Shown: positions 8,612 through 28,782, numbered from the stretch's first letter. The stretch is 44,116 nucleotides of DNA from a virus (IMGVR_UViG_3300028585_000007); one strand, 5' to 3'. Translations and numbers: made by a program. Notes: a model not told the origin generated them from the letters alone.

Positions 8612-9214
8612 ATGCCCGCAATTAGCCAGCTTCGCATCCCCGCGCGACACCGCGCCACACTGCCCGAGCCGAAGGACGCGCGGTTCCCGTGCAACTTCTG
8701 CCGCACGAACGACCACAACCTGTGCCCTCGGGTGTACAGGAACGGGTCGGGATCCATCCACTTCTGCCCCTGCAACACTCAGCACGACCCTCGCGTGGTC
8801 CGGTGCACCGAGTGCTACAACACGAACGAGGGCGAGGTGGACACGAAGGTCTGGCTCTGCAACGACGTCGAGGCGTGCGGCGAGCGGATCATGCGCCGGG
8901 TCGAGAAGACCGAGGTGTACCAGCAGATCACGCAGGCTCAGGACTCCGCCCGCGAGAAGCAGATCGCGGAGGGCAAGCGCAAGCCCGCACGCCCGCGCGG
9001 CGAGGGTCGGCCCAAGACCGGCCAGTGCCTCTGCTGCGGCGAAACCACGGGCGGCGGCAAGTTCAAGCCCGGGCACGACGCGCGCATGGTCAGCCAGCTC
9101 GCGACCAAGGTCCAGGAGGGTGCCGACGCGGACAAGGTCAAAGCCGACTTCGCCGCGCTCGGTGTCTCCGACGCACTCCAAGCCAAACTCGCCAAGCGGA
9201 TCGGAAACCTGTGA
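8612..9214 (+). CDS. Cys-rich (multi zinc-ribbon-like) protein with a C-terminal CxCC...PGHDAR module (paralog family member 3)
   Basis: 13 Cys in the first 90 aa; C139-L-C-C...FKPGHDAR (aa 151-158). Confidence 0.7.
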   Translation: MPAISQLRIPARHRATLPEPKDARFPCNFCRTNDHNLCPRVYRNGSGSIHFCPCNTQHDPRVVRCTECYNTNEGEVDTKVWLCNDVEACGERIMRRVEKTEVYQQITQAQDSAREKQIAEGKRKPARPRGEGRPKTGQCLCCGETTGGGKFKPGHDARMVSQLATKVQEGADADKVKADFAALGVSDALQAKLAKRIGNL

Positions 9215-9474
9215 TGAACATCGAAGAGCACGAGGCCGAGTGGGCCAAGAAACGAGACGCGGAGGACGCGCAGAAGGCGGACGGCATGCTGAAATTGCTG
9301 TCGTTCCTCATGTTCGTCAGCTTCTGGATCTTCGCCGCGCTGGTCGTGAACAAGCTAGCCGACATCGTCGGTGCGAACGGCCCTGGCGTCGCCCTCATGC
9401 ACGTCCTGGCGTGCGGGTTCTCTGGCATCATCGCCTTCGCCTTCTACGCCACGCGCGCGGGTGGTGGCCGGTAA
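9214..9474 (+). CDS. Small membrane protein (2 TM)
   Basis: ATG 9214 overlaps TGA 9212-9214; LLSFLMFVSFWIFAALVV and VLACGFSGIIAFAFYA. Confidence 0.6.
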   Translation: MNIEEHEAEWAKKRDAEDAQKADGMLKLLSFLMFVSFWIFAALVVNKLADIVGANGPGVALMHVLACGFSGIIAFAFYATRAGGGR

Positions 9475-10101
9475 ATGCCCAAGATAGCAGGACGCAGGAC
9501 CTACAAGCAAGAGCGACCGTACCAGGACCTCTATGAGGCTCCCAAGGGTGACGGCCTCGACCCGCAGATCGACTACGACCACGCGGTCTACTTCGACCCG
9601 GGCAACCGGTATACCGGGGTCGCGATCTTCCAGCGTGACCCGCTCGATGACACCTGGGACTGCGTGGACGCGTTCACCTGGGACATCGAAGCCGAGGGCG
9701 CGAACATCGAGAAGCTGTGGAACTGGCTGTCGGCCTGCCTGGGTCGCGGTGAGTACGACATCGTCGGGTACGAGAAGTTCCGCCTGTTCGAGGACAAGGC
9801 CAAAGAGCAGACCGGCTCGGAGTTCGGCGCGTCGCAGCTCATCGGCGTGATCAAGTACCTTCACCACCGCAACATCACGATGAACCGGTGGCCTCGTCAG
9901 CCGGTGGAGCTGGTGCAGTTTCTCCCGGAAAACAAGAAGGCCGTCGCAGGTATAATGAAGAAGCGGGGGATCAGCTCGGAGGCCCGCCGTCGCGGCACCT
10001 TCGGTGATCACGCGTGGGACGCCGAACTCCAGGGCTACTACGACATCATCAAGAACCGAGGGTGGAACACCGCCCGCAAAGCACCGACAGAGAAGGAATA
10101 A
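9475..10101 (+). CDS. ruvC: RuvC-like Holliday junction resolvase
   Basis: VYFDPGNRYTGVAIF (catalytic Asp context), VGYEKF, and C-terminal GDHAWDAE, matching the RuvC-fold acidic residue pattern. Confidence 0.65.
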   Translation: MPKIAGRRTYKQERPYQDLYEAPKGDGLDPQIDYDHAVYFDPGNRYTGVAIFQRDPLDDTWDCVDAFTWDIEAEGANIEKLWNWLSACLGRGEYDIVGYEKFRLFEDKAKEQTGSEFGASQLIGVIKYLHHRNITMNRWPRQPVELVQFLPENKKAVAGIMKKRGISSEARRRGTFGDHAWDAELQGYYDIIKNRGWNTARKAPTEKE

Positions 10102-10130
10102 TAGCCTCCCTCTGCGGTGGCGTAACCATC

Positions 10131-10304
10131 ATGGCTTTTTCACCTCAAACACATCACACGCTGCGGGGGCAGGTTGGCCTCGCGTACCAGCCCGAGACTC
10201 AGGCTAAGACCTACGACAGCAAGTGCCGCAAGTCTTGCTGCTGGACCCCGTTCAAGTGCGCCAAAGACCTAAACTGCAACTGCCACAAGAAAGAGAGCAA
10301 CTAA
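10131..10304 (+). CDS. Small Cys-rich hypothetical protein (57 aa)
   Basis: Internal ATG of track ORF 10014-10304; the stop overlaps the next start. Confidence 0.4.
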   Translation: MAFSPQTHHTLRGQVGLAYQPETQAKTYDSKCRKSCCWTPFKCAKDLNCNCHKKESN

Positions 10305-10522
10305 TGCAAGGCACCGACACCGCCACTGACCTGCCGTCCATCAAGGACGCGCCGAACCGCCCGACTCACGCGATGCTCAAGGTGGGCAAGTCCGTGATCA
10401 AGACGAAGATCGACTGGGAGGCGTACGACCCCAAGAAGCCGGACCGGTTCACGGTGTGGGGCTTCAACAAGAAGTACGACGTCAGCCGCGCTCGCATCAC
10501 CTTCTGCAAGAAGATCAAGTGA
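10304..10522 (+). CDS. Hypothetical protein (72 aa)
   Basis: ATG 10304 overlaps TAA 10302-10304. Confidence 0.55.
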   Translation: MQGTDTATDLPSIKDAPNRPTHAMLKVGKSVIKTKIDWEAYDPKKPDRFTVWGFNKKYDVSRARITFCKKIK

Positions 10523-10911
10523 GCGCCCACGAGTCCCCGATGCCGGGGCAGGTGTACCAGACCGTCCAGGCCTTCACGTCGTACGACGCCGAGGTCGGGC
10601 GGTTTGAGACGCTCGACCTGGACAAGGCCCAGGTCATCACGTCCATGGTTGCCGGTGAAAGCGGTAACCACAAGGTGATCCTGGACATCGACCTCCCGGC
10701 ACAGTTGATCCCGTCTACGACTCCTGGCCACTTTCACCTGTACATCGACGTAGAGGTGCCCGAACCTGAGTACGTAAACATGCTGGAAGCCATGGCTAAG
10801 GCGGGCGTGATCGAAAAGGGTTACTACGGTGCCAGCAAAGAGCGTGGGTTCACTGCCGTGCGGCTCCCCTGGGTGAAGAAAGAGGCCCCGGTTGAACACC
10901 CCGGCGCCTAA
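10519..10911 (+). CDS. Hypothetical protein (130 aa)
   Basis: GTG 10519 overlaps TGA 10520-10522; ATG 10540 is an alternative start. Confidence 0.55.
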   Translation: MSAHESPMPGQVYQTVQAFTSYDAEVGRFETLDLDKAQVITSMVAGESGNHKVILDIDLPAQLIPSTTPGHFHLYIDVEVPEPEYVNMLEAMAKAGVIEKGYYGASKERGFTAVRLPWVKKEAPVEHPGA

Positions 10912-11027
10912 GGGCTGGTTCAACTGCTACTGCGGTCGCGTACACCCTTTGTCCTGGTTGGGGCGCACCGTGCCGTCCCACGAGCAGACTCTCAAATCCC
11001 AATCCCACACAATCAAGGAGATAAACC

Positions 11028-17734: not shown

Positions 17735-17989
17735 ATGGCAGACTACACTACACCTTGGGACCGAATTGACGACCTTGAGTCGGCTACCACCAGTGAGATC
17801 CTCACGTCGGTCCGCAAGGTGTCCAACACCCTGAACTCGATGCGTAACAAGATCGACTACGCGAACCAGACTGAGGTTCATTCTCGGCTGGGCCTGCGGC
17901 AGATCGACGAGCACAACGTTCGCGTCGCTCAGTACCGGGCGGGGTTGGTGTACATCGCGGAAATGATCCGCGAGCTGCTCGCCCGCTAA
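17735..17989 (+). CDS. Hypothetical protein (84 aa)
   Basis: Track ORF; the stop overlaps the next ATG. Confidence 0.65.
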   Translation: MADYTTPWDRIDDLESATTSEILTSVRKVSNTLNSMRNKIDYANQTEVHSRLGLRQIDEHNVRVAQYRAGLVYIAEMIRELLAR

Positions 17990-18228
17990 TGCTTCACGCG
18001 AGCCGCAGGACCTACTACGCGGGGTGCCGTTGCCAGATGTGCGTAGATGCTCACGCTTACTACAAGCGTGCAATGCGCAAGCAGCGTCGCGAGCGGCTGG
18101 CGCGGGAGGTCCCTGACCACGTGCACGGCACGGTCAACGGGTACAATAACTACAACTGCCGGTGTGATCGTTGCCTTACCGCATACTCTGAGTTCTGCAG
18201 GTCGGACACACTTGCGCCGGAGTCCTGA
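17989..18228 (+). CDS. Small protein with repeated GC(R)C-x2-C zinc-knuckle-like motifs; probable DNA binding
   Basis: YYAGCRCQMCVDAHAYY and GYNNYNCRCDRCLTAY form two copies of the same motif. Confidence 0.6.
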   Translation: MLHASRRTYYAGCRCQMCVDAHAYYKRAMRKQRRERLAREVPDHVHGTVNGYNNYNCRCDRCLTAYSEFCRSDTLAPES

Positions 18229-18246: not shown

Positions 18247-18543
18247 ATGACAGTCCGCACGGTTCCCACCGCGCTCGTGTCGAAGCAGCACCCGAATGAG
18301 GCGCAGCTGAACCCCGAGTCGGTGGCAGCATTTGAAGCTCTCCAGAAGGACCCACACACGTGGGTTGTCTGGCAGAGCGGCTTTGCCCATCACAAGGCAA
18401 GCAAGGCGCAGGCCTACAACCTGCGTAACGGCAAGCGCCAGAAGCTCCTCACGGCTGGCCACGACCTGGAGTTCAAGGCTTGGAAGGATCCCGACACGGG
18501 TGACTACCAGGTGATCGCCCGGTTCGCAGGAGGCGACGAGTAG
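18247..18543 (+). CDS. Hypothetical protein (98 aa)
   Basis: Track ORF; the stop overlaps the polymerase GTG. Confidence 0.6.
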   Translation: MTVRTVPTALVSKQHPNEAQLNPESVAAFEALQKDPHTWVVWQSGFAHHKASKAQAYNLRNGKRQKLLTAGHDLEFKAWKDPDTGDYQVIARFAGGDE

Positions 18544-20714
18544 TGCCACTCCCGATCCAGGAAGCTCGTCGCACTGGCACCATCCTTCCGTCCGAGCTGC
18601 TTGAGGCGTACGTCCACGCGTGGAACATCGAGTCCCCCGTTGCCGTCGACACTGAGACTTCTGGTCTGTTTGTGGACGACGGCGCTCGCGTGTCCACGGT
18701 CTCGCTTGCGTTCGCTGACCCGCTGGGCGTCTGGGCCAATCTCTTCGAGGGTCGCAGCTGCGAGGGCGCACTCGACGGCTGGTTCACGTACCGAGTGGAG
18801 GAGGTGGCACCTGGCTACAGTGTCCCCGTCGCGTCGTTCGCTTGGCCCTTCGACCAGGGAGTATCCTTCACGGATAAGCCCGAGGACGATGGGTATGCCA
18901 CTATGTGGCCGGACGCCGAGAACCTCAGCCGCGAAGAGTGGGCGGCGCTGTTCGAGTTCCTGAGGCTAGCGGGCCAGGAGACTGGCTTGGTGTTCCACAA
19001 TGCCAAGTTCGACCTGCACATGCTTGAGGCGGGGACCCGTCGTTGGCCCGGCCTGGGGTGGGACCTCTCCCGCCTTGTGGTGGCGGACACGCAGAACACG
19101 GTCGCGTTGCTCTACCCCACACTGGCGCTGGTTTCCCGGATGGGCAAGCTGGCCCCTACTACTTCGCTCAAGCCGAACTCGGCTGCGTTCTGGGGTGAGG
19201 CTGAGACGGACGAGCAGAAGGTGATCAAGGATTACCTCCGACGCAAGAAGCTTCCGAACGGGCGCTGGGACCTGATGCCGTGGGATGTGATAGCGAAGTA
19301 CGCTGACCAGGACCCCCGACTCACCTTGCGCATCCACCTCCGCGCCGAGCATGACATCCAGCAGGGACTGGTTGGCACGTGGCTGACGGGCACCGGCAAT
19401 AAGTTGTCGATCCAGCAGGCGCTCGACCGTCGCCTCGACACGACGAAGTTCCTGTACCGGATGGAGCGGCGCGGGTTGCCGTTCGACACCCAGGGTGCGT
19501 TGGTCGCGTCGAAGGAGTTGCGGTACCGGTCGGCGCAGATCGAGGACCTGTTGCCGTTCTCCCCTGCTACACTTCCCCGGGCCAAGCAGTACTGGTTCGG
19601 GGACCGAGACGAGGGCAACTTGGGGTTCCCGCCTTACGCGGAGACTGACAAGGGTGCCCCTAAGGTCGACGGCACCGTCGTCGATTACATGGTGCGTGAC
19701 AACATTCCGGGAGCAAAGGAATGGAAAGATTTGCAGAAGCTCGCGACCGCCGACTCCAGGTGGTACGCGGGCTACGCCGACCTCGCAGGATCCGATGGGC
19801 GCTTGAGAACCTCAGTCCGGCAGAACGGGACAGTTTCTGGTCGGTTCTCCGTCGAGCGCGTGCAACTGCAGGCGATCCCCCAGAACTACAAGTTGTCTTC
19901 GTTTACCGTATTGGACGGCGTTCCTACTCCCCGCGCCTTGATTGGCTCAGGAATATCCTCTGGCTGGAAGATGTGGGAACTGGACTTGGCTCAAGCCGAA
20001 CTCCGGGTCGCCGCGATGTACGCCAAGTGCCAGACGATGCTGGACTTGATCGATCAAGGCGCAGATTTGCACGGCGAAACCGCCAAGCAGCTGTTCGACA
20101 TTTCCCCCGACGATCCTCGCTGGGATCAGATGCGGTCCGTCGCAAAGCGATCAAACTTCAGCCTCATCTTCGGTACGGGGTGGGAGACGTTGCAGGCGGC
20201 AATCGAAGAGCAAGTCGGTATCCGGTTGTCGGACGCGGAGGCCGAGTCGCTGGTACGCGACTGGAACAGGCTGTACCCCGAGTACAAGCGGGCGATCTAC
20301 GAAACCAAGGCAGTCGTGGAGCGGCGCATGCGTTCGCCCCAACATGGCCGTGGAGTGGGCTGGATCGACACGGTCAATGGCGAACGGCGCTGGTTCGTTC
20401 CCGGCGAGGACACGCACAAAGCCTTCAACCAGCGGGTCCAGCCCAACCTCGCCCAATTCGGGATCGACTGGTGGCTCAAGGTCGAGCGACGCCTAGTCAA
20501 GAAGTTCGGCGACGATCCGGTTACCCTGGACGGCGTGTACGTCGGCAGAGTGGGCATGGTTATGACCATCCATGACTCGATGGTTCTGCTTCTGCCGGAC
20601 ACGCCTGAGTCCCTCAAGATCGTCGAGCATGCTCAGAACACGGGTCGCAAGCTCTGGGCGAAGAGGTTTCCTGGGGTCCCTGGCGACATCGACGCCAAGC
20701 CCTGGAACAAGTAG
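18543..20714 (+). CDS. polA: Family A DNA polymerase with 3'-5' exonuclease and no 5' nuclease domain (DpoZ-type candidate)
   Basis: Exo motifs VAVDTETSGL, HNAKFDLHML, KYADQD. Polymerase motifs LDLAQAELRV (A), RSVAKRSNFSLIFG (B), IHDS (C). Confidence 0.9.
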   Translation: MPLPIQEARRTGTILPSELLEAYVHAWNIESPVAVDTETSGLFVDDGARVSTVSLAFADPLGVWANLFEGRSCEGALDGWFTYRVEEVAPGYSVPVASFAWPFDQGVSFTDKPEDDGYATMWPDAENLSREEWAALFEFLRLAGQETGLVFHNAKFDLHMLEAGTRRWPGLGWDLSRLVVADTQNTVALLYPTLALVSRMGKLAPTTSLKPNSAAFWGEAETDEQKVIKDYLRRKKLPNGRWDLMPWDVIAKYADQDPRLTLRIHLRAEHDIQQGLVGTWLTGTGNKLSIQQALDRRLDTTKFLYRMERRGLPFDTQGALVASKELRYRSAQIEDLLPFSPATLPRAKQYWFGDRDEGNLGFPPYAETDKGAPKVDGTVVDYMVRDNIPGAKEWKDLQKLATADSRWYAGYADLAGSDGRLRTSVRQNGTVSGRFSVERVQLQAIPQNYKLSSFTVLDGVPTPRALIGSGISSGWKMWELDLAQAELRVAAMYAKCQTMLDLIDQGADLHGETAKQLFDISPDDPRWDQMRSVAKRSNFSLIFGTGWETLQAAIEEQVGIRLSDAEAESLVRDWNRLYPEYKRAIYETKAVVERRMRSPQHGRGVGWIDTVNGERRWFVPGEDTHKAFNQRVQPNLAQFGIDWWLKVERRLVKKFGDDPVTLDGVYVGRVGMVMTIHDSMVLLLPDTPESLKIVEHAQNTGRKLWAKRFPGVPGDIDAKPWNK

Positions 20715-20746
20715 TCCCGCACCTGCGGGCACACTAAGGAGGAATA

Positions 20747-20872
20747 ATGGCAACAGCATTCAAGGTGACGGACGAGCTGGTCGAGGTGTTCACCGAGGCC
20801 TTCATCGCGTACGACGGCGGCGGGGACCCCGCGACCCGTGCCGGACTCGAAGCGGTGTCCGCCGCACTGTAA
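20747..20872 (+). CDS. Very small ORF (41 aa), not in the track
   Basis: TAAGGAGGA SD lies 5 nt upstream of ATG 20747; the peptide is MATAFKVTDELVEVFTEAFIAYDGGGDPATRAGLEAVSAAL. Confidence 0.5.
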   Translation: MATAFKVTDELVEVFTEAFIAYDGGGDPATRAGLEAVSAAL

Positions 20873-20879
20873 CCAGTAC

Positions 20880-20909
20880 TTGACAGTATACTAAATGGTA
20901 TGCTAGACT
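20880..20909 (+). promoter_or_regulatory. Promoter (class GTACTTGACA) for the PurA-like operon
   Basis: TTGACA 20880-20885, 18-nt spacer, TGC-TAGACT ending at 20909. Confidence 0.7.
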
Positions 20910-20916
20910 GGTCACA

Positions 20917-21034
20917 GGTCCGGAGGCGAGAGGTATCACGCACTGTCGATGTGGGAGCAAACTAGCGGCTGACGAGTCGCCGTCCCTGAATCCCCCCCAG
21001 ATAGAAGTTCGCAGGTTCGAACCCTGCCTGGACC
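20917..21034 (+). ncRNA. Non-canonical tRNA-like element in the 5' leader (acceptor-like stem, D-like hairpin, consensus T-arm)
   Basis: T-arm GCAGG-TTCGAAC-CCTGC at 21011-21027. The adjacent CTGGACC (21028-21034) pairs with GGTCCGG (20917-20923). The hairpin GCG-AGAGGTATCA-CGC lies at 20926-20941. The 118-nt length and the lack of an anticodon arm exclude a normal tRNA. Confidence 0.3.
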
Positions 21035-21069
21035 CCGATACCGCAGAGTGCGGATCAAGAAGGAGCAAA

Positions 21070-22185
21070 ATGAGTATCATCGACGTGGTCGCGGGAGCGG
21101 CCTTCGGTTCGGAGGGCAAGGGCCACATCACGGCCCAGCTCGTCAAGCGTCGCCTCCGCCAGGAGCAGCGCACGGTCGTCAACGTCCGTGTCGCCGGTCC
21201 GAACGCGGGGCACACGGTCATCGACGACCGGAACCAGGCGTTCGCGCTGCGATGCGTGCCGGTGGGTGCGGCAATCGCGGCTGAGGTCTGGCTGTACATC
21301 GCGCCCGGGTCGGAGGTCGAGCTGGAGGTCCTAGCGAAGGAGGTCCACGAGCTGCGCGAGGCTGGCCACGCGGTCGGTCGGCTGTACGTGTCCGGCGAGG
21401 CCACCCTGCTCGAAGATCACCACAAGCAGGAAGAGACCGACGCAGCACTGACGCAGCGCATCGGCTCGACCGGCAAGGGGATCGGCGCGGCTCGCGTGGA
21501 CCGGCTCATGCGGTCGGCCAAGCGCATCTGCGACGACCCCGCTGCGGTGGACTTCATCGAAGCCCTCGGCGCGACGGTCGTGGACGAGGCCGAGGCCAAC
21601 TGGCTGGTGTCGTGGGCGGAGACGCGCAACGCGGCGATCATCATCGAGGGCACGCAGGGTTACGGCCTGGGCCTGCACGCGGGGATGTACCCGACCACGA
21701 CCTCGTCGGACTGCCGCGGGATCGACTTCCTGGCCATGGCGGGCATCATGCCGTGGCACCGGGGCGTCACCGAGACGAACATCGTCCTGGTCGCAAGGGT
21801 CTTCCCCATCCGTGTGGCGGGCAATTCGGGTCCGCTCAAGAACGAGCGCACCTGGGACGAGCTGGGTCTGCCCGAGGAGCGCACGACCGTCACGCAGAAG
21901 ATCCGGCGCGTCGGTGAGTGGGACGGCGAACTCGTCGCCCGCGCGGTCAAGGCTAACGGCGGCGGTCAGCGCGGCATGAGCATGGTGAACGTGGGAATCG
22001 CCCTGACCATGGTCGACCAGAAGTTCCCGTTCATGAAGGACCGCACGTCGATCCGGCTCATGTTGAAGGAGGCGGAGCAGTCGGAGCTGAACGCGATGAC
22101 GAACTTCCTCAAGCAGGTCGAGTTCGAGTCCGGCGCGGAGGTCATGGCCATGACCACCGGCCCCAACCACATCATCTGGAGGTAA
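21070..22185 (+). CDS. purZ: Adenylosuccinate synthetase-family enzyme, short form (PurZ-type candidate)
   Basis: The P-loop reads GSEGKGH where PurA has GDEGKGK; GSTGKGIG and EGTQGYGL are conserved PurA-fold motifs; 371 aa. Confidence 0.8.
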   Translation: MSIIDVVAGAAFGSEGKGHITAQLVKRRLRQEQRTVVNVRVAGPNAGHTVIDDRNQAFALRCVPVGAAIAAEVWLYIAPGSEVELEVLAKEVHELREAGHAVGRLYVSGEATLLEDHHKQEETDAALTQRIGSTGKGIGAARVDRLMRSAKRICDDPAAVDFIEALGATVVDEAEANWLVSWAETRNAAIIIEGTQGYGLGLHAGMYPTTTSSDCRGIDFLAMAGIMPWHRGVTETNIVLVARVFPIRVAGNSGPLKNERTWDELGLPEERTTVTQKIRRVGEWDGELVARAVKANGGGQRGMSMVNVGIALTMVDQKFPFMKDRTSIRLMLKEAEQSELNAMTNFLKQVEFESGAEVMAMTTGPNHIIWR

Positions 22186-22187
22186 TC

Positions 22188-22814
22188 ATGGCTGGACACG
22201 AGAACGGCAGGGAATACTCCGTCGCACCCGAGCCGTTGGAGAACGCGGCTCAGACCCCGGGTTACCAACCGCCCGAGAAGATGTACACCCTGGCGGAGGC
22301 GATTTCGATCATCGACTCCCGCCCCGTCCCCGGCGTCGCTGAGGAAATGAACGAGCGTCGGGCCGACTGGGGTGCTCAAGCCTCCGCGAAGGGCCAGTTC
22401 ATCAAGACGGCTGAGCGTCTGCTCACCAGCCGTGATGAGTTCGACGCCCGTGACTCGGCGGCGGACATCGCGGACAGTCTGCGGTCGTGGTGGCTGGACG
22501 TCGCGTCGCAGGAGGTCGAGCCGCTCATCGCGAAGATGTTCGAGTACGGCGGCGTGGGTCGGTCGAGCGACCTGGTCGAAATCGGCAAGAAGATGGTGCG
22601 GCTCGGCGTCACGAGGCAGAAGTCCTTCGGCCCGAACGACGACCACACGTCGTACGCCGAGCTGGGCATCTACTTCTACATCGAGGGCAAAATGGCGCGC
22701 TGGTCGGCTGCAATCGCGGAGGGTCGGCCCGTCTCGGACGACACCCTCCTCGACATCGGCATCTACGTTCGCATGGTTCAGCGGATCCGTACGGTCGGGG
22801 GGTGGCCGGTATGA
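22188..22814 (+). CDS. Helical protein, possibly an all-alpha NTP pyrophosphohydrolase superfamily member (MazG/DUF1599-like; MazZ analogue candidate)
   Basis: The start is 2 nt after the PurA-like stop. The pattern RRADWG ... GKMARW ... DDTLLDIGIYVRMV resembles MazG-like helices; the assignment is weak. Confidence 0.35.
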   Translation: MAGHENGREYSVAPEPLENAAQTPGYQPPEKMYTLAEAISIIDSRPVPGVAEEMNERRADWGAQASAKGQFIKTAERLLTSRDEFDARDSAADIADSLRSWWLDVASQEVEPLIAKMFEYGGVGRSSDLVEIGKKMVRLGVTRQKSFGPNDDHTSYAELGIYFYIEGKMARWSAAIAEGRPVSDDTLLDIGIYVRMVQRIRTVGGWPV

Positions 22815-23161
22815 GTCCCTCCGCCGAAACCGACGCTGAGTACGAAGAGCGTCACCGCAAAGAGTGGAACGCCCGGTACAGCCGGGCACTCGCCCAAGCG
22901 CGCCAGAGCCAGGAGTTCCTCAAGCTGCTCCAGTCCAAGCTGATCGAGGACGACCTGGACATGCTCGCGGCCCAGAACTCGCGGGCGGTCATCCTGTCGG
23001 TTACCGATCGCCTGGACGACATGACGGTCAAGGAGGTCAAGACCATGGACGGTCGGCTGATGGACGAGTTGATCCGTCTGGAGGCGCGTCGCGACCTGAT
23101 CAACCTCACACGCGAGACGATGCGCAAACACTCGGGCGTGGGTGCCCCACTCACCGACTAG
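22811..23161 (+). CDS. Hypothetical coiled-coil protein (116 aa)
   Basis: ATGA overlap at 22811-22814. Confidence 0.55.
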   Translation: MSPSAETDAEYEERHRKEWNARYSRALAQARQSQEFLKLLQSKLIEDDLDMLAAQNSRAVILSVTDRLDDMTVKEVKTMDGRLMDELIRLEARRDLINLTRETMRKHSGVGAPLTD

Positions 23162-23221
23162 TCCGGGTTACGCCTACGTCGAGCGCAACGTGCGCACGAT
23201 GTCGGCAATCGGCGGCGTATA

Positions 23222-23230
23222 TGATATGCT
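23222..23230 (+). promoter_or_regulatory. Extended -10 element without a clear -35
   Basis: TGA-TATGCT. Confidence 0.4.
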
Positions 23231-23242
23231 GACGGACCAGAT

Positions 23243-23298
23243 AGTACACGACCACGGCGAAATCCTCCGCGAGGGGGGTTTCGCCGTGGATCTGTACT
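23243..23298 (+). promoter_or_regulatory. Long leader hairpin upstream of the dUTPase gene
   Basis: CCACGGCGAAA (23252-23262) pairs perfectly with TTTCGCCGTGG (23279-23289); the stem is extended by AGTACA / TGTACT; GGAGG SD follows. Confidence 0.55.
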
Positions 23299-23312
23299 GG
23301 AGGTACCGAAGC

Positions 23313-23792
23313 ATGGGTCACACACCAGACTACACATATCGAGAGATAAGGGCAAGAATGAGCGACGAAATCCTGATCGAGCTGCTGAACGCGGACGCGA
23401 CGTTCCCCACGCGCGGGTACGACGACGACGCGGGCATCGACCTGTACACCTCCACGGACATGTGGATCAATCCGGGTGACTCGGTGGACGTGCCGACCGC
23501 CGTCGCGATGCAGTTCCCGCCCTCGGTCTGGGGCATGCTGGTCGGTCGGTCCTCGACCCTCCGCAAGCACGACCTGCTGGTGAACACGGGGATCATCGAC
23601 ACCGGCTACCGGGGCGAGCTGTTCATCAACGTGCACAACCTGGGCAAGCGGGCGTTCAGCGTCCACAAGGGTATGCGCCTGGCTCAGATCATCCCGATGT
23701 CGAACCTCGCGCCGAAGCTCCCGATGCGCATGGTCGACTTCCTCGACGAGCACGAGCGCGGTGCGCACGGGTTCGGGTCCACTGGTGTTTGA
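23313..23792 (+). CDS. dut: Trimeric dUTPase
   Basis: All five motifs are present: AGIDLY, GRSST, GIIDTGYRGE, MRLAQI, RGAHGFGSTG. Start chosen at ATG 23313 after GGAGG; ATG 23359 is an alternative. Confidence 0.85.
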   Translation: MGHTPDYTYREIRARMSDEILIELLNADATFPTRGYDDDAGIDLYTSTDMWINPGDSVDVPTAVAMQFPPSVWGMLVGRSSTLRKHDLLVNTGIIDTGYRGELFINVHNLGKRAFSVHKGMRLAQIIPMSNLAPKLPMRMVDFLDEHERGAHGFGSTGV

Positions 23793-24102
23793 GGGCGTGG
23801 TGTTCGATCCTCGGCCCGAGGACCGCGACTTCGAGCTGTACGTGAACATGTTGGCCATGGATCGCGAGGCGGAGTTGCGGGAGCGATTTGTACAGGCGCT
23901 GGAGGGCGTGTACCCGGGACGGCCCCGCGAGGTCCTGGAGAATGCCGTCGCGGAGCGCGTGCGCATGCTGGGGCGTCCGCTGTGGCTGGACGAGGTGCTA
24001 GCTATGGTGGGGGTTCTCCTGGACCGTTACTACACCTACGGCCCGCCCACCACGCCGTGCGTACTCCGGACTTGTGCCCCGGTCCCGGATGTGCTAGACT
24101 AG
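23761..24102 (+). CDS. Hypothetical protein; start uncertain (GTG 23761, 23785, 23797 or 23800)
   Basis: Track ORF overlapping the dUTPase 3' end. Confidence 0.5.
   Translation: MRTGSGPLVFEGVVFDPRPEDRDFELYVNMLAMDREAELRERFVQALEGVYPGRPREVLENAVAERVRMLGRPLWLDEVLAMVGVLLDRYYTYGPPTTPCVLRTCAPVPDVLD
24072..24100 (+). promoter_or_regulatory. Promoter of the family
   Basis: CTTGTGC (-35 at 24072-24077), 17-nt spacer, TGC-TAGACT ending at 24100. Confidence 0.6.
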
Positions 24103-24146: not shown

Positions 24147-24626
24147 GTGGCTGACACCATCACCCCCGAGACCGAAGCCGAAGCCGTCGCGACCCCCGCG
24201 AAGGTCAAGGAGCCGATCAACCCCCAGGTCCCCGCCGAGTTCAAGAACGCCGAGTCCGGTCGCTACCTCCCCGGCAAGGACGCCGCCCACAAGTCGCAGG
24301 TCGCCAAGGCGATCGTCGCCGGTGGCAACCGCGACAAGCTCCTCGCCGAACTCGGGTCGGACAAGCTCCGCGAGGGCGCCCTCAAGCAGGTCGAGAACTT
24401 CTACCAGAAGATCGGCAGCAAGGGCACCGCCGGGTTCGTCAAGGTCAAGACCGACGAGTTCGAGGCCCGCAAGCTGCGCGGCGACGGCGGCGTCTGGTTC
24501 GACGGCGACAAGGGCTGGGAGCACGTCGCTTCCGACTCCAAGATCGCCAAGACCTTCGAGTCCCTCGCCGACCGTGACAAGGCCGTCGAGGCCGAGGCAG
24601 CCGCCAGCGAGGCCGACGCCAGCTGA
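24147..24626 (+). CDS. Hypothetical protein with a degenerate PGHDAR-type module (YLPGKDAAH); paralog family member 4
   Basis: GTG 24147 lies downstream of the promoter; aa 40-48 read YLPGKDAAH, followed by a helix similar to the other members. Confidence 0.6.
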   Translation: MADTITPETEAEAVATPAKVKEPINPQVPAEFKNAESGRYLPGKDAAHKSQVAKAIVAGGNRDKLLAELGSDKLREGALKQVENFYQKIGSKGTAGFVKVKTDEFEARKLRGDGGVWFDGDKGWEHVASDSKIAKTFESLADRDKAVEAEAAASEADAS

Positions 24627-24649
24627 CCTCGCCGTCAACGCGTCTGTGG

Positions 24650-24675
24650 TGCCCCGGGGCTAAGGTCCCGGGGCA
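24650..24675 (+). terminator. Hairpin terminator
   Basis: TGCCCCGGG / CCCGGGGCA, 9-bp perfect stem, followed by TTGCAGTCTCTTT. Confidence 0.7.
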
Positions 24676-24710
24676 TTGCAGTCTCTTTGAAGGACAAAGC
24701 GAGGGATACT

Positions 24711-25689: not shown

Positions 25690-25974
25690 TTAGTCGTTGT
25701 ACAGCTTGGACTGGATCCCTCGCACGACCATGCTGAGGTGTCGGCGCGTTGTGACGCTGGTCGAGTGCGGGAACAGAACCATCCAGGTGCCCTCGCCGGG
25801 CGCGTCGAGGTCGGGTTGGAAGATCGCTATGACTGTGCTGTACGAGGTGACCTGCAGCTGCTCGTAGTCGGCGTCGTCGGGCGTCATCCACTCTGCCCGT
25901 AGGTTACCCGCGTCGAACGGGATGTTCTTGCGGATCAGCTCGGGGACGTCGGACTGGTACACTTTGCCGGACAT
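25690..25974 (-). CDS. Hypothetical protein (94 aa); the only minus-strand gene
   Basis: ATG at 25974 is preceded by AAGGAGCAGTAC on the minus strand; the upstream extension of the track ORF covers its own promoter. Confidence 0.65.
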   Translation of the reverse strand: MSGKVYQSDVPELIRKNIPFDAGNLRAEWMTPDDADYEQLQVTSYSTVIAIFQPDLDAPGEGTWMVLFPHSTSVTTRRHLSMVVRGIQSKLYND

Positions 25975-26022
25975 GTACTGCTCCTTGTTGTCTGCGCGCG
26001 CCGTGTGCGCGCGTCTGCCACG

Positions 26023-26052
26023 AGTATACCACACATATTGCCCGTGCCGCAA
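26023..26052 (-). promoter_or_regulatory. Minus-strand promoter of the same family
   Basis: The reverse complement reads TTGCGG - 18 nt - TGG-TATACT; a leader hairpin GCGCGC/GCGCGC lies at 25994-26012. Confidence 0.65.
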
Positions 26053-26086
26053 GCAGGTCCACGACACGCCCGGGCTGCACGGGGAC

Positions 26087-26115
26087 TTGCGGACTCAGAG
26101 AGGGCGTGGTATACT
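26087..26115 (+). promoter_or_regulatory. Promoter divergent from the minus-strand one
   Basis: ACTTGCGG (-35 at 26087-26092), 17-nt spacer, TGG-TATACT ending at 26115; leader hairpin at 26127-26143. Confidence 0.65.
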
Positions 26116-26164: not shown

Positions 26165-26557
26165 ATGACTGAGAACACCGTCACCCTCGCCAACTGCAAG
26201 TGCGGCTGCAAGCAGCAGGTCGGAAGCGTCGACAGCTTCTACCGCCCCGGCCACGACGCCCGCCACGCTGGAGACGTCGCCCGCAGCATCCTCGACGACG
26301 GCGACCGCAAGCACCTCGACGCGCTCCCCACGGACGCACTCAAGGCCAAGTCCGAGGCCCTCGCGGTGAAGTGGATGACCGCCGCCGAGGCCAAGGCCGC
26401 GAAGAAGGCCGAACGCGAGGCAGCCAAGGTCGCCAAGGAGGCCGAGGCCAAGGGCGAGCAGCCCGAGGCCCCCAACAAGACCCGCGCCCGCCGCGAGCTG
26501 GCGAGCATGAAGGAGCGGTCCGAGAAGGCAGCTGAGAAGGCCGGTGCGACCAAGTGA
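26165..26557 (+). CDS. CxCxC-PGHDAR protein with an Ala/Lys/Glu-rich tail (paralog family member 1)
   Basis: C11-K-C-G-C...FYRPGHDARH (aa 26-34); the tail is AAEAKAAKKAEREAAKVAKEAEAK. Confidence 0.7.
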   Translation: MTENTVTLANCKCGCKQQVGSVDSFYRPGHDARHAGDVARSILDDGDRKHLDALPTDALKAKSEALAVKWMTAAEAKAAKKAEREAAKVAKEAEAKGEQPEAPNKTRARRELASMKERSEKAAEKAGATK

Positions 26558-26900: not shown

Positions 26901-26923
26901 AGCCCCGGACTTGCGCCGGGGCT
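26901..26923 (+). terminator. Hairpin terminator whose loop carries the next promoter's -35
   Basis: AGCCCCGG / CCGGGGCT, 8-bp perfect stem. Confidence 0.65.
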
Positions 26924-26940
26924 AACCTGTGTGGTATACT
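26911..26940 (+). promoter_or_regulatory. Promoter of the family
   Basis: TTGCGC 26911-26916, 18-nt spacer, TGG-TATACT ending at 26940; leader hairpin GGGCGG-AGAG-CCGCCC at 26952-26967. Confidence 0.65.
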
Positions 26941-26988
26941 AGGTGTAGACAGGGCGGAGAGCCGCCCGCAGAGCACAAGGAGCAGAGC

Positions 26989-27548: not shown

Positions 27549-27564
27549 GGGAGGGATAAAGACA

Positions 27565-27605
27565 AGGATAGATAGGGATAGAGATAGGGATAGATATAGG
27601 TATAG
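27565..27605. repeat. Tandem hexamer array NNATAG (GGATAG ATAG GGATAG AGATAG GGATAG ATATAG GTATAG)
   Basis: GATAG at 27567, 27571, 27577, 27583 and 27589, then TATAG at 27595 and 27601. Confidence 0.9.
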
Positions 27606-27633
27606 TACCCGACACGCCCGGGCTTCACGTGGC

Positions 27634-27663
27634 TTGTGCTGGGGCGAACTGATCTGATAGACT
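27634..27663 (+). promoter_or_regulatory. Promoter of the family
   Basis: CTTGTGC (-35 at 27634-27639), 18-nt spacer, TGA-TAGACT ending at 27663. Confidence 0.6.
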
Positions 27664-27720
27664 AGCTCTTGCACAGGTGACGAGTACCTCCTGGATCGGG
27701 ACGCACGGCACGACGCACGA

Positions 27721-27752
27721 CCCCCAACCCTCATTGCTCCGAGGGTTGGGGG
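27721..27752 (+). promoter_or_regulatory. Leader hairpin upstream of the HNH gene
   Basis: CCCCCAACCCTC / GAGGGTTGGGGG, 12-bp perfect stem, 8-nt loop. Confidence 0.55.
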
Positions 27753-27777
27753 TCGACCTGTACCCGGGGGTGACAAG

Positions 27778-28062
27778 ATGAGCGCCACTAGCGCCCGCAG
27801 CCGACGCTACCGCCAGATCTTCAAGGCGGAAAAGGAACGGTGCCGCACGACTGGCGGCAAGTGCTGGATCTGCCACCGCAAGATCGACTGCTCAATACCG
27901 AGCGTCGAGAAGTGGGGATTCAGCCTGGACCACGTAGACCCGACGGTGTTCGGCGGCGACCTGGAGCGACTGGCCAACCTCAAGTGGGCACACAAGCGGT
28001 GCAACAGCAGGCGAGGCGACGGTACGAACAAGAACGTACTGATCACCAGCCGCAAGTGGTAA
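27778..28062 (+). CDS. HNH endonuclease
   Basis: CWICHRKID ... SLDHVDP ... WAHKRCNSRRG (HNH His/Asn/His plus zinc Cys pairs). Confidence 0.85.
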   Translation: MSATSARSRRYRQIFKAEKERCRTTGGKCWICHRKIDCSIPSVEKWGFSLDHVDPTVFGGDLERLANLKWAHKRCNSRRGDGTNKNVLITSRKW

Positions 28063-28089
28063 GAAAAAAGAAATAATAAAAAATAAAAT
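28061..28089. other. Extreme A-rich tract
   Basis: aagaaaaaagaaataataaaaaataaaat in an otherwise GC-rich genome. Confidence 0.9.
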
Positions 28090-28115
28090 GGCCCGGCTTA
28101 AAATGGCCCGGCTTC
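28089..28115. repeat. Two more copies of TGGCCCGGCTT(C/A)
   Basis: Copies at 28089 and 28104. The surrounding AAAATGGCCCGGCTT.AAAATGGCCCGGCTTCGA nearly matches 25503-25537. Confidence 0.95.
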
Positions 28116-28154
28116 GAACGGTCTTCTTGCCAATCTCCACTCAGCCGGGTCGAG

Positions 28155-28168
28155 ACAACATATGTTGT
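28155..28168. repeat. Perfect 14-bp palindrome ACAACATATGTTGT flanked by direct CCGG(G)TCGAG
   Basis: Read directly; the flanking repeats are at 28145-28154 and 28173-28181. Confidence 0.9.
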
Positions 28169-28228
28169 TGGGCCGGTCGAGTCAGTGACTCCCAGCTGGC
28201 ATTCAGCTAAGGCTCAGCAAGCTCAGGG

Positions 28229-28257
28229 TTGCGCCGACGCCCGCGATGTGGTACAAT
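28229..28257 (+). promoter_or_regulatory. Promoter (upstream of two tandem promoters)
   Basis: TTGCGC 28229-28234, 17-nt spacer, TGG-TACAAT ending at 28257. Confidence 0.6.
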
Positions 28258-28353
28258 CGCGCGCCCGCGCCCGCTCGCGCCGCGCGGACAGAGAGGTCCG
28301 GCGACACTCAGCGAACTCACAGCAACCCGTTATCAGCTAGTTATCTCCCGGAC

Positions 28354-28382
28354 TTGCGCGGTGGTCCCCGGGGTGATAGACT
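28354..28382 (+). promoter_or_regulatory. Promoter (proximal)
   Basis: ACTTGCGC (-35 at 28354-28359), 17-nt spacer, TGA-TAGACT ending at 28382; leader hairpin CGAGGG-ACAGG-CCCTCG at 28398-28414. Confidence 0.65.
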
Positions 28383-28437
28383 GGTGGTACACCGGATCGA
28401 GGGACAGGCCCTCGGCAGGACACCACAGGAGCACACA

Positions 28438-28782
28438 ATGGCCACCACCGCCCGCACCCCCCGCAAGACCGCCGCCACCAAGACCGCCGCGAAGACCCCC
28501 GCGACCGCCCCCGCCGCCGCCCAGTGCCTGTGCGGCTGCGGCCTCCGAGTCGCCCCCCGCCGCTCGTGGCTCCCGGGTCACGACGCCCGCGCCGCTGGCG
28601 TCGCCGCCCGCGCCGCACTCACCGGGGACACAGCAGCCATTCAGGCGCTCCCCAGCGAGGCCCTCCGCACCAAGGCCGCCAACCTGGCAGCCCGCTGGGA
28701 GGCCGCTGCGAAGGACAAGGCCGACCGCGCCGCCGAGCGCGCCGCCGCCCGCGAGGCGAAGCTCGCAGCCGCCGCCAAGTAG
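28438..28782 (+). CDS. CxCxC-PGHDAR protein with an Ala/Lys/Thr-rich N-terminal tail (paralog family member 2)
   Basis: N-terminus TARTPRKTAATKTAAKTPATAPAAA, then C30-L-C-G-C...WLPGHDARA (aa 44-52); clear paralog of 26165-26557. Confidence 0.7.
   Translation: MATTARTPRKTAATKTAAKTPATAPAAAQCLCGCGLRVAPRRSWLPGHDARAAGVAARAALTGDTAAIQALPSEALRTKAANLAARWEAAAKDKADRAAERAAAREAKLAAAAK

Follow-up and report, generated by a model that had tools for sequence, protein, structure and literature searches.

PGHDAR-module proteins of a phage genome: a conserved, unnamed domain family that accompanies a 2-aminoadenine gene cassette

The window, a stretch of 44,116 nt of actinobacterial phage DNA, encodes four proteins, here named M1 to M4, which belong to a genuine and conserved but unnamed domain family, the PGHDAR-module family. 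In lytic actinophages the family accompanies the PurZ0-type cassette for 2-aminoadenine (Z), and the sequenced phages that have it are all ones with the genes for Z-DNA, yet it is not limited to elements with Z-DNA. We infer, with about even confidence, that M1 to M4 are zinc-stabilised early proteins associated with DNA or transcription. The original prediction, which had seen in them small zinc-dependent nucleic-acid-binding proteins and possibly genome-organising factors, is partly supported.

Identification of the four-member family

The four genes, their modules (delimited by HMM alignment) and an additional domain of M4 are located in the window as follows.

26165..26557, + strand: M1, 130 aa, pI 9.2; module, then long mixed-charge Ala/Lys/Glu helices
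26189..26365, + strand: M1 module, aa 9-67
28438..28782, + strand: M2, 114 aa, pI 10.9; basic N-terminal tail, module, Ala/Arg/Glu/Lys helix
28519..28698, + strand: M2 module, C30-L-C-G-C34, W-L-PGHDAR-A, then LPSEALRTKA
8612..9214, + strand: M3, 200 aa, pI 9.0; N-terminal Cys-rich region, basic linker, C-terminal module
9026..9199, + strand: M3 module, aa 139-196
24147..24626, + strand: M4, 159 aa, GTG start, pI 5.3 (acidic); Cys-less module, then beta mini-domain
24255..24398, + strand: M4 module, Y-L-PGKDAAH (40-48), then LGSDKLREGA
24429..24566, + strand: C-terminal beta mini-domain of M4, FVKVKTDEFEARKLRGDGGVWFDGDKGW...AKTF, delimited by the mini-domain HMM

A module HMM of 66 positions was built from 30 homologues outside the window and compared with the 785 six-frame ORFs of the window. 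M1, M2, M3 and M4 were the sole matches, with E values of 1.4e-23, 6.3e-18, 1.7e-11 and 3.9e-10, respectively, and the best other ORF gave an E value of 0.1; an iterated, broader HMM again retrieved only these four. By BLASTP, M1 and M2 are 46% identical over 61 aa (E 3e-10), and the E values were 8e-5 for M1-M3, 9e-6 for M1-M4 and 2e-4 for M2-M3. The G, D, A and L of the G-x-D-A core and helix 3 are invariant in 34 sequences including M1 to M4, and the G-x-D-A core together with a helix-3 L...L-x-x-K signature is found in the family, which, as delimited by the profile of independent homologues, takes in M1 to M4 and overlaps phrog_5390, phrog_5395 and phrog_5539. The similarity is significant at the profile level, and because it sits in the non-repetitive Cys/PGHDAR/LPxxAL core, the low-complexity artefact that the original prediction had named as a possible explanation is excluded. 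The four ORFs, the motif positions within them and their grouping as Cys-rich/PGHDAR paralogues, all of which that prediction had put forward, are confirmed.

Architecture of the module and the putative zinc site

The consensus module comprises about 60 residues, namely C-x-C-G-C, 8-10 further residues, Y-R-P-G-H-D-A-R-H and three helices, the last of which closes with L-P-S-x-A-L-R-x-K-A. Among 137 relatives, C, C, G, H, D, R, L and K are invariant and a further C, G, Y, P, A, H, A, L and A nearly invariant; the three Cys and the PGH histidine all belong to one or the other class. The M1 module reads C11-K-C13-G-C15, Y-R-PGH30-DAR-H34 (PGHDARH being residues 28-34) and then LPTDALKAK, and that of M3 reads C139-L-C-C142, F-K-PGHDAR-M, followed by helices and LGVSDALQAK. 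The putative C3H site (C-x-C-x-C plus P-G-H) is present in M1 and M2 and takes the variant form C-L-C-C in M3. Judging from this pattern of residues, the module probably binds one zinc via three Cys and one His.

The AlphaFold2 model of the M1 module alone is confident (pLDDT 94.8, pTM 0.78) and consists of a beta-bridge knuckle and three helices, and the model of full-length M1 (pLDDT 87.5) has helices at residues 30-45, 48-53, 57-96 and 105-128. The original prediction had assigned no named domain to the module, and correctly so, as searches of Pfam, NCBIfam, PADLOC, PDB sequences and PDB folds with the module and M1 to M4 gave no match. Against the PDB, Foldseek gave best E values of 6.5 with the module model and 3.4 with the full model, a profile search (E<=10) of PDB sequences returned designed helical proteins only, at E about 0.1, and the defence and counter-defence models of PADLOC-DB matched neither M1 to M4 nor three bacterial relatives. 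The module also showed no likeness in sequence or fold to known DNA-binding or transcription-factor domains in the PDB and Pfam, a point against a role in DNA binding or transcription.

Features of the individual members

M1 matches phrog_5390 (E 4.8e-18) and shares 38% identity with gp53 of Arthrobacter phage Korra; its tail, with 16 basic and 11 acidic residues, is modelled as a long helix. M2 resembles Korra gp55 (E 3e-9). Its N-terminal tail (TARTPRKTAATKTAAKTPATAPAAA) is Thr/Ala/Pro/Lys-rich and basic, with a net charge of +5 in 28 aa, and its C-terminal tail is a mixed-charge helix with +2 in 27 aa. M3, which has no tail, is the orthologue of Korra gp31 (34% identity, E 2e-24) and matches phrog_5477 (E 1.9e-19). 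Matches to its Cys-rich N-terminal region (aa ~25-95) were confined to the PurZ-bearing phage groups in which the family occurs, and M3 and its orthologues lie within the replication gene block, adjoining a helicase gene.

The M4 module has no Cys and carries K instead of the PGH histidine, so that all candidate zinc ligands are missing, as they are in some relatives (e.g. the L021 ORF). This absence counts against the reading as zinc-stabilised proteins with a DNA- or transcription-related role, as do the net charge of only +1 on the M1 module and the acidity of M4 overall. The beta mini-domain of M4 is the sole match to its HMM in the window (E 3e-13) and is lacking in M1 to M3. It is akin to the 'KVGRWTYPA...RDGSGEW' domain of relatives; such a C-terminal 'KVGRWxYPA...G' mini-domain occurs in 81 of the 137 relatives and is optional within the family, and at loci L001-L092 the ORFs with the mini-domain also carry the module in 43 of 43 cases.

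Promoters and transcription units

The motif CTTGNNN-N14-18-TANNCT occurs at 14 sites in the window against 1.7 expected, a number reached in none of 100 shuffles, and lies 47-56 nt upstream of M1, M2 and M4. The promoter-like sites and a terminator-like hairpin are listed below, the first three from the motif scan and the M3 site as read from the sequence.

26086..26115, + strand: M1 promoter-like site, CTTGCGG-N-TGGTATACT
28353..28382, + strand: M2 promoter-like site, CTTGCGC-N-TGATAGACT
24071..24100, + strand: M4 promoter-like site, CTTGTGC-N-TGCTAGACT
8577..8606, + strand: M3 promoter-like site, TTGACA, 18-nt spacer, TG-extended TAGGAT
24644..24681, + strand: strong terminator-like hairpin with a 17-bp stem, directly 3' of M4

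A minus-strand copy of the motif (26053-26023) stands back-to-back with the M1 site. The M3 site was missed by the scan because its -10 element is TAGGAT and not TANNCT, and since its end lies 6 nt upstream of the ATG, the M3 mRNA is probably leaderless. The position of the hairpin suggests that M4 is a single-gene transcription unit. The earlier proposal that each paralogue has its own promoter holds, in that a sigma-70-like promoter is predicted for every member.

Relatives and domain fusions

At a threshold of E<=1e-3 the profile search recovered the representatives of 2,491 clusters (counted at 50% identity), and at E<=1e-10 those of 549. The family is confined to Actinomycetota phages and mobile elements, with about 1-4 module copies per genome. 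The module is the conserved part of these proteins and the tails are the least conserved; many relatives possess C-terminal segments of the AKAAAKAAK type. The net charge of the modules averages +2.6 and is positive in 80% of them. In phage contigs with a Mu-type portal, the operon that diverges from the structural genes begins with the module gene.

Of the 137 relatives, 93 are extended at the N-terminus by 75 aa or more. The profile of this extension matched winged-helix proteins in the PDB, namely eS25 (6e-6), AF2008 (3.7e-4) and, more weakly, MarR and MecI, and Pfam gave weak HTH_65, MarR_2 and IclR matches. Many relatives thus carry a winged-helix domain; M1 to M4 are not winged-helix regulators of this kind, and the N-terminal wHTH profile found nothing in the window (best E 4.5). 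In other relatives the module lies C-terminal to a WhiB domain. Four such fusions exceed the Pfam WhiB cut-off of 23.6 bits: P0156 (36.8), P0161 (32.5), the L113 ORF (40.2) and, at locus L099, the ORF at 9089-9871 (26.4). The L099 fusion gene belongs to an integrative element of ~10 kb, in which it and a stand-alone module gene immediately precede the serine integrase gene. M1 to M4 gave no Whib match (PF02467, the four-Cys Fe-S domain) and are not Wbl proteins.

Possible role in DNA binding or transcription control

In the module, a short beta-knuckle with C-x-C-x-C packs on the start of helix 1 (P-G-H-D-A-R-H) and probably holds one zinc, and two further helices follow, ending in L-P-S/T-x-A-L-R-x-K-A. 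In the mechanism that we propose, the module and its flanking basic or mixed-charge segments would contact DNA or the transcription machinery; in relatives a winged helix or WhiB joined to the module would serve for targeting, and the phage of the window would deploy the module as four separate proteins, every one of them under a host-type promoter of its own. Fusions to winged-helix and WhiB domains, which recur in the family, and the modest positive charge (M1 to M3 having pI values of 9.0-10.9) point in this direction, and they make nucleic-acid binding by the module plausible.

Fusion to a winged helix could equally make the module a non-DNA-binding partner for dimerisation, sensing or protein contact. 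The module may instead be a protein-protein interaction or oligomerisation domain and no nucleic-acid binder, an alternative that we regard as less likely. RNA polymerase or sigma A, a replication protein or the module itself would be possible partners; the winged helix or WhiB would give targeting, and the stand-alone phage forms would be small factors that modulate a protein of the host or of the phage. This would fit with the module usually being the second domain after a bona fide DNA- or sigma-binding domain, with its being unlike known DNA-binding folds, with the acidic M4, with the location of M3 and its orthologues beside the helicase gene, and with the mixed-charge helices after the modules of M1 and M2, which resemble coiled-coil or single-alpha-helix spacers. 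On the other hand, the modules and their flanks mostly carry a net positive charge, M2 and many relatives have basic Lys/Ala/Pro/Thr segments, no partner gene is conserved beside all members, and the divergent paralogues, four to five per genome, would require several partners.

Association with the 2-aminoadenine cassette

The original prediction had raised the possibility that the phage DNA is base-modified, and a 2-aminoadenine cassette is indeed present. It lies outside the family and is given for context; the roles of PurZ0 and DutZ in it are taken from PMC12884076.

18543..23792, + strand: 2-aminoadenine cassette, gene order as in Korra
18543-20714, + strand: DNA polymerase I
21070-22185, + strand: PurZ-type adenylosuccinate synthetase homologue
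22188-22814, + strand: conserved gene of unknown function
23142-23792, + strand: dUTPase-fold protein

It might be supposed that the family is tied to Z-substituted phage DNA, which it would bind, organise, transcribe or discriminate, replacing host factors that read A:T minor grooves, as the minor groove of Z has an extra amino group. Several observations agree with this. In a tblastn search (E<=10) of 50,697 phage records, the module was found in 105 Arthrobacter, 18 Microbacterium, 6 Gordonia and 1 Curtobacterium phages, and the counts of PurZ homologues in these four genera were equal to those of the module; PrimPol homologues were also present in 38 phages of Mycobacterium, 11 of Streptomyces and additional ones of Gordonia, in which the module gave no match. 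All four metagenomic contigs with enough flank, which include the phage type with the Mu-like portal, have Adenylsucc_synt, dUTPase and DNA_pol_A no more than 10 kb away. PurZ is on the same contig at 6 of 11 IMG/VR module loci, a seventh has a dUTPase-like gene at its truncated contig end, and divergent PGHDAK variants that share the architecture are present at additional loci with PurZ. The copy number of the module per genome is also in line with such a role.

Against this, 26 module loci in Actinomycetota chromosomes are without PurZ within 10 kb, among them a small but complete integrative element without Z genes; the module is therefore not Z-specific. No family member was found within 10 kb at 39 of 80 PurZ-positive IMG/VR loci, including the entire group with GC~0.54, and in the tblastn search the module was absent from Z-genome phages of Gram-negative hosts. 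Furthermore, PurZ0 phages have a common replication cassette, so that co-occurrence may reflect shared ancestry and not function. A role specific to Z-DNA is thus not supported, and we consider the tie to Z-DNA rather improbable.

Histone-like tails

The original prediction had likened the Ala/Lys tails to those of actinobacterial HU/histone H1-like proteins and had seen possible nucleoid or genome-organising factors in the family; on this reading the tails would coat DNA non-specifically. The tails do exist: only the basic N-terminal tail of M2 fits the description, its composition resembling that of actinobacterial HupB-type tails, and many relatives end in AKAAAKAAK-type segments; the strong individual promoters would also suit such proteins. 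The analogy is not supported by the M1 tail, a predicted rigid helix of mixed charge, by the mixed-charge C-terminal helix of M2, by the tail-less M3 or by the acidic M4, and conservation resides in the module rather than the tails. Pfam and PDB searches revealed in M1 to M4 no HU fold or Bac_DNA_binding domain (PF00216), histone fold or H1 globular domain, and neither Lsr2 nor HU nor histones are related to the module in sequence or fold. We consequently hold this interpretation to be very improbable, and the DNA- or transcription-associated role remains our preferred reading. The idea of four unrelated ORFs whose motif is chance or low-complexity noise of a GC-rich genome can practically be dismissed, given the gap between the HMM matches and the best other ORF, the thousands of homologues with invariant residues, the confident structure model and the confinement of low complexity to the Ala/Lys tails, with no evidence found in its favour.

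Comparison with known systems

HU/HupB and H1-like proteins share with the family the Ala/Lys/Pro/Thr-rich character of the M2 N-terminal tail and of many relatives' tails, but the module has neither the fold nor the sequence of HU, and tails are not conserved in the family. Ros/MucR C2H2 fingers offer a tentative parallel, being likewise small, with Cys on a beta-hairpin, His at a helix start and helices after the metal site. A classical or Ros finger is defined by C-x2-4-C...H-x3-5-H and a beta-beta-alpha (or beta-beta-beta-alpha-alpha) fold, and the spacing of Ros/MucR is C-x2-C-x9-H-x3-4-H, whereas the module has C-x-C-x-C...H(-x3-H). With a spacing of C-x-C-x-C-x14-H-x3-H, the last His of which is lacking from M2 and M3, the module is not such a finger, and PDB chains including Ros87 did not match it by profile or fold.

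Four PHROG families of 'unknown function' (phrog_5390, phrog_5395, phrog_5539 and phrog_5477) match M1, M2 and M3, the weakest with an E value of 0.036; the family had therefore already been clustered from phage proteomes. The PHROGs, however, split it by flanking regions, attach neither name nor function to it and do not capture M4, and they leave the shared module, the zinc-ligand pattern, the fusions and the PurZ link undefined.

The accessory genes of the PurZ0 cassette are DpoZ-1, DutZ, DmtZ and DUF5664 (PMC12884076). The module agrees with them in its phyletic pattern across cultured actinophages and lies within a few kb of the cassette, but its fold is not that of an enzyme, and PMC12884076 makes no mention of it. 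Unlike these genes, it also occurs in PurZ-less integrative elements and is missing from about half of the PurZ-positive metagenomic loci.

WhiB7 consists of a WhiB domain and a C-terminal DNA-binding AT-hook. Some relatives, in which a WhiB domain is followed by a C-terminal module, have a similar layout, and both groups are actinobacterial, including phages. M1 to M4 differ in having no WhiB domain, and the module differs from the AT-hook, a short peptide, in being a folded putative DNA-binder of ~60 aa.

A family of four paralogous proteins sharing an unnamed module

It had been predicted from the sequence alone that the window encodes four paralogous proteins which share a Cys-rich PGHDAR module. 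The four ORFs and their motifs were found at the predicted positions, with the following architectures:

26165-26557 (+): M1, 130 aa, module and mixed-charge helices
28438-28782 (+): M2, 114 aa, basic tail, module, then a helix
8612-9214 (+): M3, 200 aa, Cys-rich N-domain, basic linker, then the module
24147-24626 (+): M4, 159 aa, Cys-less module and beta domain

A 66-position HMM of the module was constructed from 30 homologues in public data, none of them from the window, and run with filters off on all 785 six-frame ORFs of the window. The results showed that exactly the four named ORFs were scored (E-values 1.4e-23, 6.3e-18, 1.7e-11 and 3.9e-10), the best value for any other window ORF being 0.1, and a broader HMM iterated three times recovered the same four window ORFs only. 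The match region consists of the Cys knuckle, the PGHDAR turn and the LPxxALRxKA helix and lies outside the Ala/Lys tails; therefore, the objection of a low-complexity artefact, which had been raised with the original prediction, was checked and ruled out. The four-member family is real and its sequence-level description is correct. Arthrobacter phage Korra has orthologues of M1 (gp53), M2 (gp55) and M3 (gp31), which suggests that the paralogy is old and has been maintained.

The module had been described as not assignable to a named domain, and database searches bore this out. No meaningful match to any of the four proteins came from Pfam, NCBIfam or PADLOC, and searches of PDB sequences with M1 as a single query and with a 28-sequence module profile returned spurious helical or designed proteins only. 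Foldseek comparison of the full M1 model and the module-only model with PDB gave no match below E 3; in BFVD, all matches were phage proteins (Gordonia, Arthrobacter and Streptomyces phages) that are uncharacterised. The PHROGs matching M1-M3 are all of unknown function. The searchable literature on the PGHDAR/PGHDA motif and on transcription of 2-aminoadenine DNA (Z-DNA) gave nothing on the module family, which is also unmentioned in two recent Z-phage papers. The family is already clustered in PHROGs, yet it is unnamed, uncharacterised and structurally unmatched.

Anatomy of the module

The consensus of the module, obtained from two alignments of 34 and 137 sequences, is C-x-C-G-C-G-E-x(7-9)-Y-R-P-G-H-D-A-R-H-A-G-x-V-A-R-x(10-20)-L-L-x-x-L-P-S-x-A-L-R-x-K-A. 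No variation is seen at the first or third Cys or at G, H, D, R, L and K, and very little at the second Cys, the glycine within C-x-C-G-C, Y, P, two Ala, the second His, a second Leu and the final Ala. The 65-residue module was modelled by AlphaFold2 from a 28-sequence alignment with a pLDDT of 94.8 and a pTM of 0.78; in the model the three Cys are placed on a small beta-bridge, and helix 1, which begins exactly at the PGH histidine, is followed by two more helices, helix 2 being short and helix 3 long. Since the three Cys and the PGH His are kept in M1, M2 and M3, whereas the second His is absent from M2 and M3, a putative C3H zinc site is the simplest reading of the conservation. All candidate ligands are missing from M4 and from a few relatives, in which the helical core is nevertheless kept, so the knuckle is probably structural rather than a functional surface.

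Family size and domain architectures

A profile search covering 1.84 billion cluster representatives recovered 2,491 family members at E<=1e-3, of which 549 also pass E<=1e-10. In 93 of the 137 best relatives the N-terminus is extended by 75 aa or more; the profile of this extension matched winged-helix (wHTH) structures in PDB, namely eS25 (6e-6) and AF2008 (3.7e-4), then MarR, MecI and TFE. A small beta-rich C-terminal domain ('KVGRWTYPA…RDGSGEW') is present in 81 of the 137, and M4 has it as well (E 3e-13). In the 92 fetched loci this beta mini-domain always occurs with the module (43/43), and its profile had no credible PDB match. WhiB-module fusions scoring above the Pfam cut-off were found in four independent proteins; the further fusions are DUF429-module-X, tandem module-module and, in bacterial chromosomes, wHTH-module followed by a C-terminal domain without known family.

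In chromosomes of Blastococcus, Modestobacter, Micrococcales and others (loci L093-L098, L101, L104 and L108), the module is accompanied by two further unnamed C-terminal domains, for which no match was found in Pfam, PADLOC or PDB. The first, '…VLVECWAHQGxxKxAQKxKLxxDAxKL…LxCVSDE…AQKRQYR', stands after a winged helix plus module or after tandem modules, and the second reads '…GGSITYEQLAxQLFDETGYRTRMLLGQWIGQVLGPV…'. A nuclease-like reading of the first was dropped, as Pfam, PADLOC and PDB lent it no support. The 1,641-aa protein P0093 from the profile search contains the module twice and gave no Pfam match at E<=0.01; it may be a giant protein of many domains or an artefact of gene calling.

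The N-terminal region of M3 (window 8612-9001) is Cys-rich (C-x2-C, C, C-x-C, C-x2-C, C, C) and represents a second unnamed domain, confined to the same PurZ-bearing phage groups as described below (Arthrobacter 88, Microbacterium 16, Micrococcus 1 and Curtobacterium 1). RefSeq labels its Korra and Wayne orthologues 'helicase', whereas GenBank records of sister phages have 'hypothetical protein'; we found no support for the 'helicase' label. A 79-aa ORF at 17989-18228 contains two copies of another Cys motif (Y-x-x-G/N-C-R-C-x2-C…A/T-x-Y); it has no Pfam match and falls outside the PGHDAR family by HMM.

The phage genome and its 2-aminoadenine cassette

The window has a GC content of about 63% and is essentially a whole phage genome of about 44 kb; no long near-identical DNA shared with it was found among phage records. 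Its gene order is common to Korra: helicase, exonuclease, Sak4-like protein, PrimPol, DNA polymerase I, PurZ-type adenylosuccinate synthetase, an unknown gene and a dUTPase-fold protein. Positions 18543-23792 hold a complete PurZ0-type 2-aminoadenine cassette, in which the PurZ homologue is about 50% identical to PurZ of the Arthrobacter phages Korra and Wayne; the cassette also encodes DNA polymerase I and a conserved 208-aa protein without assigned role, and its dUTPase-fold protein has an N-terminal extension of about 85 aa. PurZ homologues of this type mark phages that swap adenine for 2-aminoadenine, and in actinophages the PurZ0 variant is found alongside DutZ, DmtZ and DUF5664 (PMC12884076). 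Because the cassette is complete, the phage genome is probably Z-substituted, as judged from its gene content. As PurZ of this type marks 2-aminoadenine phages, the earlier aside on base-modified phage DNA was apt.

Distribution of the module and its link to PurZ

A tblastn scan of 50,697 cultured-phage records with the M1 module (E<=10) gave matches in phages of Arthrobacter (105), Microbacterium (18), Gordonia (6), Curtobacterium (1) and Streptomyces (1), plus five further matches that are evidently due to chance. PurZ homologues were found in phages of Arthrobacter (105), Microbacterium (18), Gordonia (6), Curtobacterium (1) and Streptomyces (5), and otherwise in phages of Gram-negative hosts. 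Among the matches listed, the phage names agree between the two sets. The PrimPol replicase was used as a control, and phage records of Mycobacterium (38) and Streptomyces (11), with additional ones of Gordonia, were positive for it without a module match, which rules out that the module merely tracks this replicase.

All four metagenomic module contigs with enough flank carry Adenylsucc_synt, dUTPase/DCD and DNA_pol_A within 10 kb, and one of them has a Mu-like portal; three other contigs are incomplete and lie outside this count. PurZ is on the same contig in 6 of the 11 IMG/VR module loci, and one more has a dUTPase-like gene at its cut end. Conversely, only 41 of the 80 PurZ-positive IMG/VR loci, obtained with an alignment rather than a single sequence as query, have a family member within 10 kb, as counted with the iterated HMM that recovers divergent 'FAPGHDAKLK' variants. 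In a large PurZ-positive group with GC of about 0.54, no family member was found within 10 kb. The divergent branch (PurZ-positive IMG/VR loci L040, L041, L045, L050, L075, L084 and L086) has the motif F-A-(P/Q)-G-H-D-A-K-L-K and a sparser, different Cys pattern, and still has the module followed by an Ala/Lys/Glu helix and then the KVGRWxY beta domain; this branch was invisible to the strict profile and was recovered by iteration.

A scan of one genome per bacterial species gave 26 module loci, all in Actinomycetota, and none of the 26 has PurZ within 10 kb. Locus L099 (1-16652; Microbacterium bandirmense, NZ_JBBDGM010000006.1) is a compact integrative element abutting the host prfB. Besides a WhiB-module fusion and a stand-alone module protein, it encodes a PrimPol-AAA_25 replicase, a large serine recombinase, an EcoRI-like adenine methylase and a GmrSD-HNH protein similar to type IV restriction proteins. 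PrimPol is paired with the module in a similar way in L102, L105, L106, L111, L112, L113 and L116. On the bacterial-genome scan and the dissection of L099, a strictly Z-specific module was rejected. In lytic actinophages the module and the PurZ0 cassette are linked by lineage, but the module cannot depend biochemically on Z-DNA.

Promoters and transcription units

Each of the four genes had been credited with its own promoter, and a promoter-like site was indeed found for each. The extended -10, sigma-70-like motif CTTG(C/T)G-N-TGnTAnACT occurs at 14 sites in the window against 1.7 expected:

3868-3841 (-), 23356-23327 (-) and 26053-26023 (-): motif sites on the minus strand
7935, 12931, 18211, 18841, 20879 and 24071: motif sites
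26086, 26910, 27633, 28353 and 38985: motif sites

This phage-specific motif lies 47-56 nt upstream of M1, M2 and M4. M3 is preceded by TTGACA-N18-TGgTAGGAT, which ends 6 nt before the ATG, and a terminator-like hairpin with a 17-bp stem lies 3' of M4. A generic sigma-70 scanner left the phage promoters unflagged, and it was the phage-specific motif scan that found them. Chance may account for a few of the 14 sites, e.g. 3868-3841 (-) and 18841. Should the window DNA be Z-substituted, the conserved -11 position would be a Z that the host RNA polymerase has to read.

At 26023-26115 two motif copies stand back to back, one driving M1 and the other a minus-strand ORF, 25690-26067 (-), whose real start is probably the ATG giving MSGKVYQSD…. 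This ORF has no family match and is apparently the sole minus-strand gene in that region. Positions 28060-28185, directly behind the HNH gene and ahead of M2, comprise a stretch unusually AT-rich for a 63% GC genome, taagaaaaaagaaataataaaaaataaaa, then the tandem direct repeat AAAATGGCCCGGCTT (two copies) and the palindrome caacatatgttg, which is flanked by repeated GGGTCGAG/GGTCGAG; this region may serve as a terminator, as an origin or in packaging.

Possible functions of the module

The function that we infer for the family is that of a zinc-stabilised small domain which would act at DNA or at the transcription machinery. Such a DNA- or transcription-associated role is the best supported, with domain context as the main evidence: the module is repeatedly joined to winged-helix and WhiB domains, and in the WhiB fusions it takes the C-terminal position. 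WhiB7 carries an AT-hook at its C-terminal position, the very place where the WhiB fusions of the relatives carry the module. In L099 both module genes lie just upstream of the integrase, the usual place of mobile-element regulators, and in several phages a module gene is the first gene of an early operon. Charge gives mild support (mean +2.6 per module; pI 9-11 for M1-M3). Against this role, Foldseek comparison with PDB gave no fold resemblance of the module to any DNA-binding domain, and M4 is acidic. Because of these two points and of a possible protein-contact role, we put the DNA- or transcription-associated role at about an even chance.

In a two-domain regulator the module could equally be the protein-contact or oligomerisation part; a pure protein adaptor of this kind appears doubtful to us. 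A role dedicated to Z-DNA is unlikely, considering the 26 bacterial loci lacking nearby PurZ, although the link with PurZ0 in cultured phages speaks for it. It would make the family the missing 'DNA-handling' layer of PurZ0-type Z-genome actinophages: dedicated small zinc proteins, recruited from actinobacterial integrative-element regulators and expanded to 3-5 paralogues per phage, would recognise, organise or promote transcription of 2-aminoadenine-substituted DNA, the altered minor groove of which would defeat host A:T-reading factors. HU- or histone-like nucleoid proteins are very improbable. The original interpretation is partly supported: the paralogous family is real and unnamed, but the histone-tail analogy holds for the N-terminus of M2 only and not for M1, in which 'AAEAKAAKKAEREAAKVAKEAEAK' is part of a 40-residue helix of nearly balanced charge.

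Comparison with known Z-genome systems

This analysis established the definition of the domain, including a putative C3H site, and showed that a beta mini-domain is optional, that fusions to wHTH and WhiB occur, that the family is restricted to elements of Actinomycetota and that its association with PurZ0 Z-genome phages is tight but not exclusive. Leaving Z-DNA aside, the module is widespread in actinobacterial mobile elements, with about 2,500 clusters at 50% identity; this unnamed domain pairs with WhiB and winged-helix domains, is without PDB precedent and merits a family definition and a solved structure. The family offers a testable handle on DNA handling by Z-DNA phages. To our knowledge, work on Z-genome phages has so far dealt with nucleotide-metabolism enzymes and polymerases only (PurZ, DatZ, MazZ, DpoZ, DutZ and DmtZ). 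The module family, being conserved, multi-copy, strongly promoted, structurally unmatched and, among cultured phages, confined to PurZ0 actinophages, is a concrete and cheap-to-test candidate for the layer missing from that set, namely the binding, organisation and transcription of fully Z-substituted DNA.
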